Assembly: GCA_009784235.1 (NCBI GenBank)
Contig: WRCC01000003.1
Coordinates: forward strand, 328 to 64,327
Length of the DNA stretch: 64,000 nucleotides
Reading direction: 5' to 3'
DNA from: Alphaproteobacteria bacterium
GTDB taxonomy: Bacteria > Pseudomonadota > Alphaproteobacteria > Rs-D84
Shown here: positions 4,400 to 39,638 of the stretch, piece by piece
Position numbering within the stretch: the stretch's first letter is position 1
Layout of the letters: every line of letters begins with the position of its first letter
The notes under the pieces: generated by a model
Told to the model about the DNA's origin: nothing
The model's database searches: none
Seen by the model: the letters and a program-made list of their open reading frames with translations, nothing else
Position numbers and translations under genes: made by a program

Positions 4400-4981
4400 A
4401 TGGCTTTAATTCCAATGGTTATCGAAGAAAGCGGACGTGGCGAACGCTCGTTCGACATATATTCCCGCCTGCTGCGCGACCGAATTGTGATGGTCCAGGG
4501 CGAATTCGGAATGCAGATGGCGAACATTATCATCGCGCAATTGCTGTTCCTGGAATCTGAAAATCCGAACGCAGATATCCAGCTATACATCCAATCCCCG
4601 GGCGGCAGCGCGGACGCATGCTATGCAATTCTGGATACCATGAATTACATCAAATCGCCGGTATCGACAATCGGCATGGGGCTGGTCGCATCGGCCGCAT
4701 CCGTGATATTGGCCGGTGGTGCACCGGGCAAACGATTTGCTTTGCCGAATGCGCATATTATGATTCATCAACCATTAACAGGTGCCGAGGGGCAAGTTAC
4801 AGACGTAGAAATCCGCCTGGCCGAGGCAATCAAATTAAAGAAAAAATTAATCGCCGATTATGCTGCGTGGACCGGAAAATCTGAAAAGATAATCGCGGAC
4901 GCCATCGAACGCGACAATTTCATGTCCGCGACCGAAGCGAAAGAATTTGGCTTGATTGATGAAATTTTGATAAAGAAATAA
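4400..4981 (+). CDS. clpP: ATP-dependent Clp protease proteolytic subunit
   Basis: [16 protein letters not shown]...[21 protein letters not shown]...AILDTM..I...V.T...G.AAS are ClpP hallmarks. Sits upstream of clpX. Confidence 0.95.
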
Positions 4982-4984
4982 TAA

Positions 4985-5098
4985 AAGTTCCCCTCTTTTG
5001 GAGGGGTGTCCCGAAGGGACGGGGTGGTTTACCCAGACTTCGGATACACTGTAAACCACCTCGGCGCTGCGCGCCACTCCTCCAAAGGAGGAGAACTT
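4985..5098. repeat. Structured palindromic repeat, copy 1 (AAGTTCCCCTC-TTTGGAGGGGTG family)
   Basis: Terminal inverted repeats AAGTTCCCCTCTTTTGGAGGGGTG / CACTCCTCCAAAGGAGGAGAACTT, with an inner pair GGGGTGGTTTAC / GTAAACCACC. Near-identical architecture at 9241-9365. Confidence 0.85.
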
Positions 5099-5121
5099 AG
5101 AGTATCCCTAGAGAGAACAAT

Positions 5122-6396
5122 ATGTCCGACAAAGATAAAGAAATAAAGTCTTCGACTACCGAACAAACTGACCACCAGGTCTGCTCTTTCTGTGGCAAGG
5201 CCGTATTCGAAGTAAAAAAATTGGTATCGGGGAAAAACGTCTGCATCTGCGATGAATGCATCGGGCTGTGCAATGATATCATGGCCGAAGACACATCGGT
5301 CAAAGTTTCGCACGATGCGACTAAATTACCCACACCATCAAAGATTTTCAAAACGCTGAACGAATATATAATCGGCCAAGAAGACGCAAAACGCACCCTT
5401 GCCGTCGCGGTTTATAATCATTACAAACGACACAACGCGTCCGCGAAATGCGATGTGGAAATTCAAAAATCAAATATCCTGATGGTCGGGCCAACCGGTA
5501 CCGGAAAAACTTTGTTCGCGCAAACTTTGGCGCGCGTGCTGGATGTTCCGTTTGCGATTGCAGACGCGACAACGTTGACCGAAGCGGGCTATGTCGGCGA
5601 AGACGTGGAAAGCGTTCTGACACGCTTGCTGCAAAATGCGAATTTTGATTTGGAACGCGCACAAAAGGGAATTATCTATATCGACGAAATCGATAAAATT
5701 TCACGTAAATCCGAAAATCCATCGTTGACGCGCGATGTATCGGGCGAAGGCGTACAACAAGCATTACTGAAATTAATCGAAGGCACGACTGCTAATGTTC
5801 CGTCCCACCCAACCGGCGGGCGCAAGCATCCGAATGAAACGACTGTGCAAATCAACACGTCTGGAATTTTATTTATCTGTGGCGGCGCGTTTGACGGCCT
5901 GAACAAAATAATCGGCGCGCGCACGAACGAACGTGCTGGCATTGGATTCGGCGCGAACGTGCAATCGAAAAAAGACCGCAGCGATACGTTCCGCCTGGGC
6001 GAACTATTACCATCTGACATTGTAAAATTCGGAATCATCCCGGAATTGGTTGGACGTTTGCCGATTATCACAACGCTGACCGAATTGGATAAAGACGCGC
6101 TGGTTAAAATCCTGACCGAACCAAAAAACGCCATTGCAAAACAATACGGCGCGATGTTCGAAATGGAAGGCGTCAAATTAACATTAAAACCAGACGCACT
6201 GGACGCCATTGCGACCAAGGCTTTGGAACGTAAAACCGGTGCACGCGGATTGCGTTCGATACTGGAAAAAATCCTGCTGCAACCGATGTTCGATGCCCCG
6301 GACCAGGAAGGACTGAAAGAAATCGTCATCGATGCTGACACCGTGAACGGCATCAAAGAACCAACACTGGTGTTCGAAAAGAAAAAAGCTGCATAA
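5122..6396 (+). CDS. clpX: ATP-dependent Clp protease ATP-binding subunit ClpX
   Basis: N-terminal zinc finger CSFCGK...CICDEC, Walker [29 protein letters not shown]. Confidence 0.97.
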
Positions 6397-35837: not shown

Positions 35838-35942
35838 AACGGGCGTAATTTATTTCATTTAAGGGAAAATTGCAATAAAAAGATTTTTAATTGAAATATC
35901 AAGGCCGTGTGGTAACATTATACAGAATACAGGAGAACCCGC

Positions 35943-36362
35943 ATGAGCCGAACTTTCGACCTGGCCGACCGCTTGGTTTATTATGCTTTGACATATTTAG
36001 ACAAACATGGGCCGACGTCAACAGCGGAACTGTTCAGCGCAATAAAACGAGATATGACATTCAATGAATGGGAAAGCGTGGTTTATCCGAAAACCGGATT
36101 TATTCGCTGGGAACGTATGTTGTATTCATTTTCGGTCGATTTGACCAAAGCAGAATGGATTACAAAAAAACGCAAAGTCTGGACATTGACACCGGCCGGA
36201 AAACATGCGCTGGAAACACTGAAAACACCCGCAGCATTGCGTGCCGAAGCAATACGGTTATGGAAAATATGGTTTGCAACACCGGCCGATGAATTAAAAC
36301 GCCGCAAAGCAGCAGCCAGAGCCGAAAAAGAAGCCGCCGAAGCAAAAACGCATAAAAAATAA
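35943..36362 (+). CDS. Winged-helix protein resembling the Mrr N-terminal domain, with a basic K/A/E tail
   Basis: LTYLDKHGPTSTAELFSAI........W.......TGFIRWERML.....DLTKAEWI.K.RKVWTLTPAGKHAL parallels the Mrr_N wHTH pattern. No nuclease domain. Confidence 0.55.
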   Translation: MSRTFDLADRLVYYALTYLDKHGPTSTAELFSAIKRDMTFNEWESVVYPKTGFIRWERMLYSFSVDLTKAEWITKKRKVWTLTPAGKHALETLKTPAALRAEAIRLWKIWFATPADELKRRKAAARAEKEAAEAKTHKK

Positions 36363-36382
36363 ATCTTGGATGGCACATTGCC

Positions 36383-37696
36383 ATGAAAATCTATCTGAAT
36401 CAAAATGTCTTGGATGCCGCGCTATCGCGCATAAAATACTGTTTCGATAATTTCGATAATGTTCTGGTTGCTTTTTCCGGTGGTAAAGACAGCGGCGTTT
36501 TAATCGAATTGTGCCACGATTACGCCCGCCAACACGGCCTGGTCCACAAAATGGCTATGTATCACGTGGATTACGAAGCTCAATATGAAAAAACCACTGA
36601 ATACGTCACAGAAACTTTCGACCGTATGGATGATATTCGGCGGTTCTGGCTGTGTTTGCCCATATCTGCGCAATGTGCAGTGAATATGCGAAATCCGGGC
36701 ATCTGGTATCCTTGGAATCCGGATGAACAAAGTATTTGGGTGCGTCCCCTGCCCCAACGCGATTTTGTCGTGCATGAAAAAAATGTACCGTTTAAATTCA
36801 ATCCCGGCGTTTCAGATTACGAAATGCAAGAAGCATTTTGCAAATGGTTTTCAAAGACGTATGGCAAAACCGCAGTCTTAATCGGCATCCGCACAGATGA
36901 AAGTTTAAATAGATTTCGCGTAATCGCCAGCAGCCGCCGAGTTAATGTATATAAAGACAAACCATGGATTTTGGGCGTCGGCGATGGATTAACATTCAAA
37001 GCATACCCAATTTACGATTGGTCAAGCGAAGACATATGGGTCGCAAACGCAAAATTCGGATATAAATATAATCGGCTTTATGACTTGATGTACCAAGCCG
37101 GCGTAAAATTGGAAAATATGCGCGTGGCCAGTCCATTCAACGATTGTGCAATAACTGCCTTGAAACTTTACAAAACAATCGAACCCGATACTTGGGCACG
37201 ATTGGTCGGGCGTGTTAATGGTGTAAATTTCGCCGGGATTTACGGCGGAACAACCGCAATGGGATGGCGTAATATAAAGCTGCCGCGTGGATATACTTGG
37301 AAACAATATTGTTCTTTTTTATTGGATACTTTGGATAAACCGTTACGCCAAAATTATGAAAAAAAATTACAAACCAGCATTCGGTTTTGGCAATACAAGG
37401 GTGGTGCGCTGTCCGATAAAACCATCGCGGAATTAAAAAAATCAAAGCATGCACATGGTAACAAAGGCAAGGTCAGCCGGACATCCAACAAAGACGTGAT
37501 AACATTTCCGGAATATCCGGATGACTTGGACATCACGGATTTCAAAAGCGTTCCAACATATAAACGCATGTGTATATGTATATTAAAGAACGACTATTTT
37601 TGCAAATATATGGGATTCGCCGCGACCAAGGAAGAAACGCTGCGCAAGCGTATCGCGCTGGATATATATAAATGTTTATGGGGGGACATAAAATGA
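36383..37696 (+). CDS. PP-loop ATP-pyrophosphatase / PAPS-reductase-like protein (IbrA-like)
   Basis: VLVAFSGGKDSGV PP-loop near the N-terminus and a long C-terminal extension. Overlaps the downstream ParB-like gene by ATGA, the arrangement known for E. coli IbrA-IbrB. Confidence 0.75.
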   Translation: MKIYLNQNVLDAALSRIKYCFDNFDNVLVAFSGGKDSGVLIELCHDYARQHGLVHKMAMYHVDYEAQYEKTTEYVTETFDRMDDIRRFWLCLPISAQCAVNMRNPGIWYPWNPDEQSIWVRPLPQRDFVVHEKNVPFKFNPGVSDYEMQEAFCKWFSKTYGKTAVLIGIRTDESLNRFRVIASSRRVNVYKDKPWILGVGDGLTFKAYPIYDWSSEDIWVANAKFGYKYNRLYDLMYQAGVKLENMRVASPFNDCAITALKLYKTIEPDTWARLVGRVNGVNFAGIYGGTTAMGWRNIKLPRGYTWKQYCSFLLDTLDKPLRQNYEKKLQTSIRFWQYKGGALSDKTIAELKKSKHAHGNKGKVSRTSNKDVITFPEYPDDLDITDFKSVPTYKRMCICILKNDYFCKYMGFAATKEETLRKRIALDIYKCLWGDIK

Positions 37697-38229
37697 CAAA
37701 ATCAAAATCGACAAGTCCGGTTTATAATGTAATTGGTGTGCCAATTGACCAAATAAATGCAAATGCGTATAACCCGAATATGGTCGCGCCGCCGGAAATG
37801 GAATTGCTATATAAATCCATTCTGGAAGACGGATACACGATGCCAATTGTATGCTATAAAATGAATGACGGACGATATGAAATCGTCGATGGATTTCACC
37901 GATATATGGTGATGAAAACACATCCAGATATTTATGAACGCGAAGATGGCTGTATGCCGGTCGTTGTTATAAACAAAGATATTTCAAACCGCATGGCATC
38001 AACGATAAGGCATAACAGAGCCCGCGGCAGCCATAGCATCGAATTAATGGTTAACATAGTTCGCGATTTAGTTGCGGCCGGAATGTCGGATGCCTGGATA
38101 CTAAAAAATATAGGAATGGATACGGATGAATTATTACGTCTGAAACAAATCAGCGGGTTGCAAGCACTGTTCGCTGACAAAGAATTCAGCACGGCATGGA
38201 CAATTGACAGCACAAGAAAATATGCATAA
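37693..38229 (+). CDS. ParB/sulfiredoxin-like nuclease-domain protein (IbrB-like)
   Basis: PIDQINANAYNPN, VDGFHRY (DGxHR) and TIRHNRARG motifs. Its start overlaps the IbrA-like stop. Confidence 0.75.
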   Translation: MTKSKSTSPVYNVIGVPIDQINANAYNPNMVAPPEMELLYKSILEDGYTMPIVCYKMNDGRYEIVDGFHRYMVMKTHPDIYEREDGCMPVVVINKDISNRMASTIRHNRARGSHSIELMVNIVRDLVAAGMSDAWILKNIGMDTDELLRLKQISGLQALFADKEFSTAWTIDSTRKYA

Positions 38230-38258
38230 AAAAATCCCGCTTTCGCGGGATTTTTTTT
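38228..38258. terminator. Bidirectional terminator (IbrB-like gene / rpsU)
   Basis: A-run, ATCCCGC-TTTC-GCGGGAT, T8. Confidence 0.75.
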
Positions 38259-38590: not shown

Positions 38591-38636
38591 CATCTAGCTT
38601 TGAATGTATAGACACAAATTGACAGGAAAGAAAGAA

Positions 38637-39638
38637 ATGCAGACCGATATTGACAGTCCCGACCGAGAGAGTTTTATAAACAAGGCCAAAGGCCTTTTTA
38701 ATACACCGACAACACCAATTCATACGCACTTTTATTGCAATGGCGAAGACCTTTGCAAATACGGCGATTATCGTCACCTGGCGAACCTGCACGTAAATTA
38801 TGCTGATAATGCGGTCGGCACGATTTATTACATTCACGGATACCACGGAAGCCCGATTGAAGAACCGTTAAGTCCGCTGGGCATAGCGGCCGAACTGGGA
38901 TATAATTGCGCGTTCATCGAAAGCGTCACGCATTCACTGACTGCAAAGCCCAATGGCGACAATTATAAATATGACCAATATCGACATCTGCCGGAACTGC
39001 GGCTGGCCATTGACCGTGCTTTGGCAATGGCGCGTAAAGACAAAAAACTTGGTCGCGGACGTCAGGTCGTACTTGCGCATTCTATGGGATGCCGCGGATT
39101 GACCGATTTGATTGTTTCCAACAAAAAAGTCCGCGCTATGTTTGAAAAAATCATTCTTGCCGATATGTATATGCTGACTGATCCTAGATTACTGGAAAAG
39201 ACGAGCCATATGAATGATGATGAGCTAAATGAATTCAAAGCGGTATCAAGAAATAGAAAATCCAATATTAATGGCGAAGACATACAGTTCAAAGCAACAA
39301 TTGGCGACCTGTTCTTGGATGACCCGTGCAAATTCGACGGCAAAAAAGTATACAATGGCGAATATACCCAAGAATATATAGATGCGTTGTTCGAAGTCTA
39401 TAATTTCGCGCAAATCCTGGGCGGCCATCAAGAGGTTTTTCTATTGGCCGCCGGCGCCAGCAGACAAGTCAGCATGAAAATGCATAACTTGATATACGAA
39501 ACCATTGACTATCCGTTGGTAACCCGGACGATTATCCCAGGGGCTGATCATTATTTTAAAAAAACACCAAAGTTATACAAGGAAGCTCTGCGGAATCAAC
39601 TGTTGGATTTTATAGCCCCAAGCACACTTATACGATAG
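38637..39638 (+). CDS. Alpha/beta-hydrolase-fold protein
   Basis: YYIHGYHGS (oxyanion region) and VVLAHSMGCRG (GxSxG nucleophile elbow). ATG at 38637 follows an AGGAAAG SD. Confidence 0.65.
   Translation: MQTDIDSPDRESFINKAKGLFNTPTTPIHTHFYCNGEDLCKYGDYRHLANLHVNYADNAVGTIYYIHGYHGSPIEEPLSPLGIAAELGYNCAFIESVTHSLTAKPNGDNYKYDQYRHLPELRLAIDRALAMARKDKKLGRGRQVVLAHSMGCRGLTDLIVSNKKVRAMFEKIILADMYMLTDPRLLEKTSHMNDDELNEFKAVSRNRKSNINGEDIQFKATIGDLFLDDPCKFDGKKVYNGEYTQEYIDALFEVYNFAQILGGHQEVFLLAAGASRQVSMKMHNLIYETIDYPLVTRTIIPGADHYFKKTPKLYKEALRNQLLDFIAPSTLIR

Follow-up and report, generated by a model that had tools for sequence, protein, structure and literature searches.

A three-gene IbrA/IbrB cassette in an alphaproteobacterial genome, with a stand-alone Mrr_N-type winged helix in the place of the usual SNF2 partner

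We analysed a 64,000-nucleotide stretch of an alphaproteobacterial genome (lineage Rs-D84; assembly GCA_009784235.1, contig WRCC01000003.1, positions 328 to 64,327 of the forward strand), referred to below as the window, and describe in it a compact cassette of three genes, of which the second and third form an IbrA/IbrB pair (YbdN/YbdM in Escherichia coli K-12). The assignment of this pair to the IbrA/IbrB family, in which a COG3969 protein is combined with a mini-ParB protein, is close to certain on the similarities given below. The family is known; new is the narrow three-gene form, in which an Mrr_N winged helix replaces the SNF2-family protein found in front of the pair elsewhere. An earlier interpretation of the window, made from its letters without database searches (the sequence-only reading), had proposed three co-directional genes and an IbrA/IbrB-type pairing, and both proposals agree with the open reading frames (ORFs), all of which lie on the plus strand, and with the full-length matches to YbdN and YbdM. 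The genes are as follows.

35943-36362, plus strand: gene 1, Mrr_N-type winged helix, 139 amino acids (ORF and Pfam match)
36383-37696, plus strand: gene 2, IbrA/YbdN-type enzyme, 437 amino acids (ORF and Pfam match)
37693-38229, plus strand: gene 3, IbrB/YbdM-type mini-ParB, 178 amino acids (preferred start and Pfam match)

The replacement of the third partner emerges from a survey of IbrA neighbourhoods, for which one genome per species was scanned and the best 80 of 538 loci were examined. IbrB follows IbrA in 79 of the 80 loci, and in 66 of them a SNF2-family protein of ~410 amino acids is encoded directly upstream of IbrA; representatives of this upstream protein carry the Pfam domains SNF2-rel_dom and Helicase_C. 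In many loci the upstream ORF runs 4 bp beyond the start of IbrA (ORF end 6004, IbrA start 6001). No further gene is conserved near IbrA across lineages in the 80 loci, and this includes any gene for a nuclease, a methyltransferase, a sulfur or amine donor, self-protection or an effector.

The SNF2 partner occurs in two states. Motif I (GTGKT/S) and motif VI (RxxRxGQ) are both intact in 25 loci, from Firmicutes, Bacteroidota, Xenorhabdus and others, and both are degenerate in 32 loci, all of them from metagenome-assembled genomes of gut Alphaproteobacteria (for example RGMEKI and GARKI). The degenerate proteins, which are found among loci L031-L079 of our survey with the SNF2 gene at ~4750-6004 in most, have lost the Walker A GK[TS] as well as the arginines and the GQ of motif VI, and are still tightly coupled to an intact IbrA-IbrB pair. 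Their sequences predict a helicase with a dead ATPase that is retained as a scaffold. The third slot is filled by SNF2, by degenerate SNF2 or, in the clade of the window only, by the Mrr_N winged helix. At least 13 species of gut Alphaproteobacteria have the module embedded in core genes (mutL, waaA and lpxK, for example), and because of this setting we consider it stably inherited there.

Some Bacteroidota loci contain, between SNF2 and IbrA, a conserved protein of ~130-140 amino acids (L022 5585-6007, L072 5592-5984, L078 5588-5980, L032 5603-6001). The L072 copy has no Pfam match, and in L027 (3899-6001) SNF2 carries the protein fused at its C-terminus. This small protein may be a fourth, lineage-specific component.

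Gene 1 matches the Pfam family Mrr_N with E=8.5e-7 and 29.5 bits, exactly the gathering score. The protein, 139 residues long, closes with a basic helical tail and has no Mrr_cat match in Pfam, so that the description of it in the sequence-only reading, an Mrr_N-like winged helix without a nuclease, stands. Ten of the longer matches among its distant relatives (205 in a full HMMER scan of 1.84 billion representative proteins) were checked with Pfam. All ten carry Mrr_N, at the N-terminus in nine, which backs the weak call for gene 1 independently; eight of them add Mrr_cat, AAA_5 (McrB-like) or GmrSD_N, and two show Mrr_N alone. Because these relatives show the architectures of type IV restriction enzymes, gene 1 is best described, at the level of domain similarity, as a stand-alone copy of the DNA-sensor domain of such enzymes. 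The closest 150 relatives are 28-42% identical to gene 1, with E down to 1e-13. Close homologues are few, only 7 among 5.8 billion proteins, with 57-66% identity and many invariant W, R and K positions.

The C-terminal tail of gene 1 (residues ~118-139, positions 36294-36362) is of low complexity and rich in K, R and A, and its length varies among homologues, up to ~45 residues in the homologue P0122. The combination of a winged helix with a basic tail recalls linker histones and suggests a non-specific affinity for DNA. A single-sequence AlphaFold2 (AF2) model of gene 1, with a predicted local distance difference test score (pLDDT) of 69, has the topology H-H-H-H-beta-beta-H, and its matches in the PDB are generic winged helices with non-significant scores (best E=0.2). 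The model supports the assignment as a winged helix, and nothing finer.

In all eight contigs that carry gene 1 (the window, L001, L002 (=L090), L081, L082/L083, L089, L091 and L092), it lies directly upstream of IbrA, with IbrB next where the contig is long enough. The linkage of the winged helix to the pair, raised in the sequence-only reading, is therefore consistent within these contigs, but it is confined to one alphaproteobacterial/Rickettsiales-like clade in which IbrA is at least 70% identical to that of the window; family-wide, SNF2 is the usual third partner. Since the carriers of gene 1 are exactly those with such an IbrA, we conclude that the association arose once. No flanking gene is common to the five longer loci (window, L001, L002, L081 and L082), and the three-gene unit is the sole thing that travels together across the loci compared. 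The gene 1 homologue of L001 overlaps IbrA by 4 bp, as the SNF2 gene does elsewhere. A tblastn search of the window and of the flanks of the related cassette loci found no SNF2-like gene or remnant, and a scan of viral contigs returned no gene 1.

The surroundings of these loci hint that the cassette tends toward tRNA-gene neighbourhoods. A tRNA-Leu(CAG) gene lies on the opposite strand 120-150 bp upstream of the cassette in L002 (5311-5395) and L082 (6224-6308), two loci whose flanks have no protein-coding similarity in common despite this, and a tRNA-Pro gene lies ~480 bp downstream of the cassette in L001 (8310-8386). No integrase gene was noticed in L001, L002 or L082, where no search was aimed at integrases. 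The search for a conserved operator in front of gene 1 was negative. The five upstream regions do not align and conservation starts at the ATG, and ATATGCCC, considered as a common upstream motif, is the 5' end of the tRNA-Leu gene in two loci.

Gene 2 has two domains, in agreement with the PP-loop and long C-terminal extension described in the sequence-only reading. A PP-loop ATP pyrophosphatase domain similar to phosphoadenosine phosphosulfate (PAPS) reductases covers residues 1-240 (Pfam PAPS_reduct, E=1e-13, 52 bits against a cut-off of 22.5) with the loop SGGKDS at residues 32-37, and DUF3440 covers residues 240-419 (E=8.8e-85, 283 bits, profile positions 1-180 of 182). The protein aligns over its full length with E. 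coli K-12 YbdN (34% identity over 425 columns, E=3e-77, BLASTP). Among 8000 candidate homologues examined, more than 6900 scored below 1e-5, and proteins 45-76% identical to that of the window are found in Alphaproteobacteria, Clostridia, Bacteroidota, Verrucomicrobiota and others. Three motifs, F31-S37 of the PP-loop, G168-R170-E173-S174-R177 and Y208-P209-D212-W213 (alternatively written SGGKDS, GxRxxES..R and PIYDW), reach at least 97% conservation across 85 sequences, which argues that IbrA is under selection for catalysis.

The N-terminal ~240 residues of an AF2 model of IbrA (pLDDT 74) match FAD synthase/FMN adenylyltransferase, APS (adenosine phosphosulfate) and PAPS reductases, CysD, TtuA and TilS. 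The DUF3440 part of the model has no fold match in the PDB, and a PDB sequence search gave no solved IbrA relative (E about 0.5); the top structural match in BFVD is a phage protein labelled COG3969. Among characterised systems, the best relatives by hidden Markov model are DndC, BrxP, TilS and CysD, proteins that act on nucleic acids or adenylylate. Gene 2 is far below the NCBIfam cut-offs for CysD, TilS and LarE, and the same is true of the cysH/PAPS reductase models (18.2 bits against 165.1 for TIGR00434, 13.8 against 154 for NF002537 and 13.4 against 254.2 for TIGR02057). The catalytic C-terminal motif ECG[LI]H is absent from its sequence. By profile score, gene 2 falls outside the assimilatory PAPS reductases.

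We considered, and ruled out, an Fe-S or zinc site formed by four cysteines (C91, C397, C399 and C407). It looked invariant in 14 close IbrA sequences only; in the 85 sequences C407 alone is near-universal and C397 is alanine in 36, and YbdN is without C91 and C399. Because conservation of the DUF3440 cysteines is not universal, a sulfur relay of the DndC or TtuA type, with an Fe-S cluster or persulfide, is disfavoured as a family-wide mechanism.

Gene 3 matches Pfam ParB_N (E=4.4e-7, 30.3 bits against a cut-off of 26.3) and is 51% identical to E. coli YbdM over the full length (E=8e-56). An N-terminal domain of the ParB/sulfiredoxin (Srx) type, with the motifs DGFHRY and RHNRARG, is followed by a short helical C-terminal part; these two motifs, like SGGKDS in gene 2, are present as quoted in the sequence-only reading. 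IbrB is more conserved than IbrA, with 59-82% identity across phyla (79 of the 80 loci). Its near-invariant motifs NxYNPNxVAxPE, VDGfHR and ASTiRHNRARG are at least 95% conserved and are accompanied by a C-terminal helical segment. We place gene 3 in what we take to be the DGxHR branch of the ParB/Srx superfamily.

In PDB sequence searches the best matches of gene 3 are confined to N-terminal domains (ParB, SbnI and Noc) and span just residues 10-76 in comparisons with chains of 228-256 amino acids. The GFHR of gene 3 aligns with the GERR patch of ParB, and with DGVHR in the alignment with SbnI. Its scores are 24.3 bits against 58.45 for parB_part and 27.4 against 315 for Noc, and a parA neighbour is absent from the locus. 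Going by these comparisons, gene 3 is not a chromosome or plasmid partition ParB. A placement of gene 2 among CysH-type enzymes and of gene 3 among partition ParB proteins would have contradicted the sequence-only reading; both scores are far below the respective cut-offs (165 for cysH, 58 for parB_part).

The cassette sits between parC and rpsU, which are encoded on the opposite strand, with the following flanking genes and putative signals.

Upstream of the cassette, minus strand: parC (TIGR01062, 806 bits against a cut-off of 629)
35891-35918, plus strand: promoter-like site, TTGAAA-16 nt-TAACAT with TG (consensus scan, 9 of 12 matches)
38228-38257, both strands: bidirectional intrinsic terminator common to the cassette and rpsU (inverted repeat and folding)
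Downstream of the cassette, minus strand and convergent: rpsU (S21p, 53 bits against a cut-off of 29)

Both flanks had been named in the sequence-only reading, and their profile matches lie above the cut-offs. Genes 1 and 2 are separated by a spacer of 20 bases. The longest ORF of gene 3 starts at 37672, and we prefer the ATG at 37693 as its start because it overlaps the stop codon of gene 2 as ATGA, the overlap also given in the sequence-only reading, and because it follows GGGGGGA, a run resembling a Shine-Dalgarno sequence. By this arrangement gene 3 is predicted to be translationally coupled to gene 2. Gene 1 has an AGGAG ribosome-binding site 8 nt ahead of its ATG.

The promoter-like site falls in the 105-bp intergenic region between parC and gene 1 and is weak evidence, as sites from the consensus scan are no more frequent than in shuffles. 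An imperfect 17-nt inverted repeat with 71% complementarity (35865-35900) extends over the putative -35 element and may be an operator, but it is not a conserved element of the other cassette loci. A search for a parS-like palindrome within the cassette gave nothing convincing. At the other end, the arms of the terminator (38228-38240 and 38245-38257) form a perfect 13-nt inverted repeat, AAAAAAATCCCGC and GCGGGATTTTTTT, of the composition A7TCCCGC and GCGGGAT7, with a 4-nt loop and flanking runs of A7 and T8. The arms touch the stop codons of both gene 3 and rpsU. The folding energy is -17.1 kcal/mol (z=-4.8; none of 200 shuffles as stable), which bears out the strong bidirectional terminator that the sequence-only reading had proposed; a consensus terminator scan did not report it.

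The GC content of the cassette is 0.428 against 0.463 for the window, and that at third codon positions is 0.41-0.45 against 0.46-0.53 in the neighbouring genes. This mild signal is compatible with an old horizontal acquisition and is not decisive. Just past rpsU, an ORF of 344 amino acids (38604-39638, plus strand) has no NCBIfam match at E<=1e-5 and was not seen beside the cassette in other genomes.

The IbrA/IbrB module also occurs on 731 plasmid and 226 phage records. In the temperate phages PY4 (Streptococcus) and AQ113 (Lactobacillus), SNF2-IbrA-IbrB follows the endolysin gene and lies ahead of the early genes, a position that we read as the usual site of accessory "moron" genes. Homologues are found in Flavobacterium phages as well, including FCL-2, which has no integrase or repressor (PMC4541368).

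In Enterobacteria the pair of the ybdNM type is stably placed beside dsbG/ahpC. The LysR gene citR/ybdO precedes ybdN-ybdM co-directionally in E. coli K-12, where CitR represses ybdNM and H-NS is described as a regulator of citR (PMC9068703). As of 2022 YbdM was termed "completely uncharacterized", and its overexpression costs ~10% of the growth rate (PMC8764527). We found no account in the literature of a biochemical function for IbrA/IbrB, DUF3440, ybdN/ybdM or a combination of PAPS reductase, ParB and SNF2, in keeping with what the sequence-only reading had said of the pair. A direct DNA search of E. coli genomes with the ibrA homologue of Xenorhabdus gave no match, and the link to YbdN/YbdM was reached through a Klebsiella record.

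Two enterobacterial records have features of their own. On a Salmonella enterica IncFIB plasmid (L086; CP053577, 104702-123901) three places match IbrA; in the copy examined, a CaiF/GrlA regulator and a 251-amino-acid protein without a Pfam match precede IbrA, and filamentous-haemagglutinin/two-partner-secretion loci flank it. In the Klebsiella record (L087; NZ_OP378648) ahpCF, dsbG, rna, pagP and mtnC surround the DUF3440-ParB pair in the same order as on the E. coli chromosome near ybdNM, and because of this order we conclude that the 316-kb "plasmid" record holds chromosome-like sequence.

We tentatively propose that the cassette modifies or marks DNA at the expense of ATP and that the subunit by which it engages DNA is interchangeable, an explanation to which we give slightly less than an even chance. 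The presence of a DNA-binding gene in the helicase's place suggests ATP-driven action on DNA. Because both alternative third partners are DNA-engaging proteins, the substrate would be double-stranded DNA (dsDNA), and because a degenerate SNF2 is kept and a small winged helix can replace it, the third partner would contribute DNA binding and not a motor. IbrB, with its DGxHR-type ParB/Srx fold, would engage dsDNA as a nucleotide-dependent clamp, an activator or a nickase, and would recruit IbrA. By analogy with DpdB-DpdA, DndB-DndC and the ParB-dependent thymine dioxygenases, we infer that IbrB recruits or activates IbrA on DNA.

For IbrA itself we infer a PP-loop adenylylation of a DNA group, with retention or displacement. 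The intact PP-loop would split ATP into AMP and pyrophosphate and adenylylate a backbone or terminal phosphate or a base carbonyl, and the adenylylated group would either stay as a mark or be displaced by a nucleophile. The third subunit, be it a SNF2 translocase, a degenerate SNF2 or Mrr_N with its basic tail, would deliver IbrA-IbrB to DNA or hold the pair there. The module could thereby leave the DNA of its own carrier with an orphan epigenetic or protective mark, a role in keeping with its occurrence in phages, plasmids and chromosomes with no nuclease linked to it. A more specific version of the proposal, in which YbdN/YbdM, a pair borne by phages, plasmids and bacteria in their thousands, E. 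coli K-12 among them, is a DNA-marking system of undescribed chemistry (adenylylation or substitution on dsDNA at the cost of ATP), with the PAPS-reductase-like enzyme loaded by a mini-ParB and with a swappable third subunit, and in which the form in the window is a reader-writer epigenetic cassette, appears to us rather unlikely, though not far-fetched. The DNA modification put forward in the sequence-only reading is thus kept here as a conjecture.

Several observations weigh against a DNA-marking module. Neither a modified nucleoside nor an enzymatic activity has been reported in the literature for any family member, and the sole phenotype recorded, in the account cited in PMC6008420, is transcriptional, namely the activation of prophage eib genes. 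A conserved gene for a sulfur or amine donor is missing from the surroundings of IbrA in the 80 loci, and the only DUF3440 cysteine shared across the 85 sequences is C407. The Mrr_N score of gene 1 is only at threshold, confidence in its model is modest, and none of its fold matches is significant. Finally, an ordinary transcription factor, LysR-type CitR/YbdO or CaiF/GrlA, precedes the pair in Enterobacteria.

Because of this last point, gene 1 could likewise be only a transcriptional regulator or autoregulator of the operon, with no part in the biochemistry of the pair; such an explanation is silent on what the pair itself does. CitR, which precedes and represses ybdN-ybdM in K-12 (PMC9068703), and the CaiF/GrlA regulator in front of the pair on the Salmonella plasmid provide precedents, and the winged helix is the commonest fold of bacterial regulators. 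The fold search with gene 1 returned MarR-type regulators, with non-significant scores, and the inverted repeat at 35865-35900 is suitably placed over the putative -35 element. However, the five upstream regions contain no conserved operator-like motif, and none of the ten scanned Mrr_N relatives carries a classical regulator effector domain, while eight have partners of the restriction type. Gene 1 also takes the slot of SNF2, in L001 with the 4-bp coupling typical of SNF2, and its basic K/A-rich tail suggests non-specific binding. On balance a purely regulatory gene 1 is possible and, in our judgement, improbable.

Defence against phages or plasmids, the "defence-type" function considered in the sequence-only reading, found no direct support and is clearly less probable still. 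IbrB as a nuclease would act with IbrA to damage or mark DNA that enters the cell, and the sensing of foreign, possibly modified DNA would fall to SNF2 or Mrr_N. The moron-like position behind the endolysin gene in PY4 and AQ113, the occurrence of Mrr_N in type IV restriction architectures and that of SNF2 helicases and PAPS-reductase-like proteins in known defence systems such as BREX type 4 (BrxP) and Dnd are in line with such a function, as is the context of the cassette, which differs in each genome and is sometimes beside tRNA genes. PADLOC-DB v2, however, gave only partial sub-threshold matches (MkoB, DndC and BrxP) and none for gene 3; it contains no model for the module beyond the weak domain similarity to DndC and BrxP, and as far as profile matches go the module is not a catalogued PADLOC defence system. 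The cross-phylum conservation of IbrB (59-82%) is above what we would expect of a defence system, and no self-protection or effector partner is conserved. Moreover, the module is vertically stable among mutL, waaA and lpxK in the gut alphaproteobacterial species and beside dsbG/ahpC in Enterobacteria, is carried by phage FCL-2, which is devoid of integrase and repressor (PMC4541368), and is repressed and silent in K-12 (PMC9068703).

It is very unlikely that IbrA and IbrB are transcriptional co-activators of prophage or host genes, acting non-enzymatically or only indirectly through an enzymatic activity, with gene 1 adding DNA-binding specificity. This explanation takes up the founding phenotype, prophage eib activation in E. 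coli as cited in PMC6008420, and the name "co-activator of prophage gene expression" that annotation pipelines give to the ParB-like gene; ParB-family proteins can be transcription factors, and SbnI is named a bifunctional regulator. Yet the PP-loop and the PAPS-reductase substrate motifs are almost invariant, which shows selection for catalysis; coupling to a SNF2 translocase is unexpected for a simple activator; the genome of the window has no eib-like target; and many genomes with the module have no nearby prophage. Ordinary metabolism and partition, with gene 2 a CysH-type PAPS reductase and gene 3 a chromosome-partition ParB, has the generic database names of such genes in its favour and can be set aside, given the profile scores (13-18 bits against 154-254 for cysH; 24-27 against 58 and 315 for parB_part and Noc), the missing ECG[LI]H tail, GFHR in place of the GERR patch, the length of gene 3, only 178 amino acids, and the locus without parA.

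YbdN/YbdM is among the more widespread gene pairs without a biochemical function, and the main value of the cassette is comparative, as the Mrr_N form and the series of degenerate SNF2 proteins sharpen the hypothesis that the pair acts on DNA. Should the pair prove to write a DNA mark, it would represent a new enzyme class for bacterial and phage epigenetics, and the old "co-activator" phenotype of Ibr would be explained. The frequent misannotation of these genes as belonging to sulfur metabolism or partition, under the database names "phosphoadenosine phosphosulfate reductase" and "ParB-like partition protein", would also be corrected. No complete form is smaller than the version in the window (~2.3 kb), which could be of use as a test construct.

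Of the known systems, some share single features with the cassette. Mrr, McrB-like and GmrSD-like type IV enzymes have the N-terminal winged-helix domain in common with gene 1, which in contrast has no nuclease or NTPase domain and is linked to IbrA/IbrB and not to a restriction effector. DpdB is the ParB-like partner of DpdA (PMC12839542), and ParB-dependent phage thymine dioxygenases require ParB only on dsDNA (PMC13229309). In both cases a short ParB-like protein is encoded beside its partner, as in the window; the partner there is a post-replicative dsDNA-modifying enzyme that needs the ParB-like protein (PMC13229309, PMC12839542). DpdA, a transglycosylase of the TGT (tRNA-guanine transglycosylase) type, and the Fe/2-oxoglutarate dioxygenase are unrelated to IbrA, and the likeness is by analogy only.

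DndB/DndC and BrxP of BREX type 4 share the logic of a PAPS-reductase-like PP-loop enzyme that works with a ParB-superfamily protein on DNA (PMC10853773; PMC12839542), DndB being the ParB-superfamily partner of DndC (PMC10853773). The sequence-only reading had called gene 2 a relative of DndC, which is correct at the level of the superfamily and not at that of the family, where gene 2 scores 19.9 bits against 290.4 for TIGR03183 and 24.5 bits, over ~80 residues only, with the PADLOC DndC model. DndC has no DUF3440, IbrA has no universally conserved cysteine dyad, and the window is without DndA, DndD, DndE, PglZ or BrxC neighbours.

The remaining systems belong to the family itself. IbrA/IbrB of E. 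coli ECOR-9, which activate prophage eib genes (Sandt et al. 2002, as cited in PMC6008420), are of the same family as the window pair by transitive similarity, and have an identical Pfam architecture. The IbrA and IbrB of Macrococcus prophage phiMC1 are 33% and 50% similar to those of E. coli (PMC6008420); the window IbrA is 59-61% identical to the Macrococcus proteins P0035 and P0082, which may be, but need not be, those of phiMC1. YbdN/YbdM of E. coli K-12 belong to the same family over their full length and have the same gene order and overlapping genes. In citR-ybdN-ybdM, as in the window, a gene for a DNA-binding protein lies co-directionally upstream, but it encodes a LysR-type repressor in E. 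coli and an Mrr_N winged helix in the window. YbdN also differs in the absence of C91 and C399, both of which are conserved in the group of the window IbrA, and the E. coli locus is fixed beside dsbG/ahpC, whereas the window-type cassette is placed differently in each genome. The SNF2-IbrA-IbrB modules of phages PY4 and AQ113 have an IbrA 50-55% identical to that of the window and the same form of a tight, co-directional three-gene operon with the extra gene first, which is a ~410-amino-acid SNF2-family helicase in these phages and the 139-amino-acid winged helix, with no SNF2, in the window.

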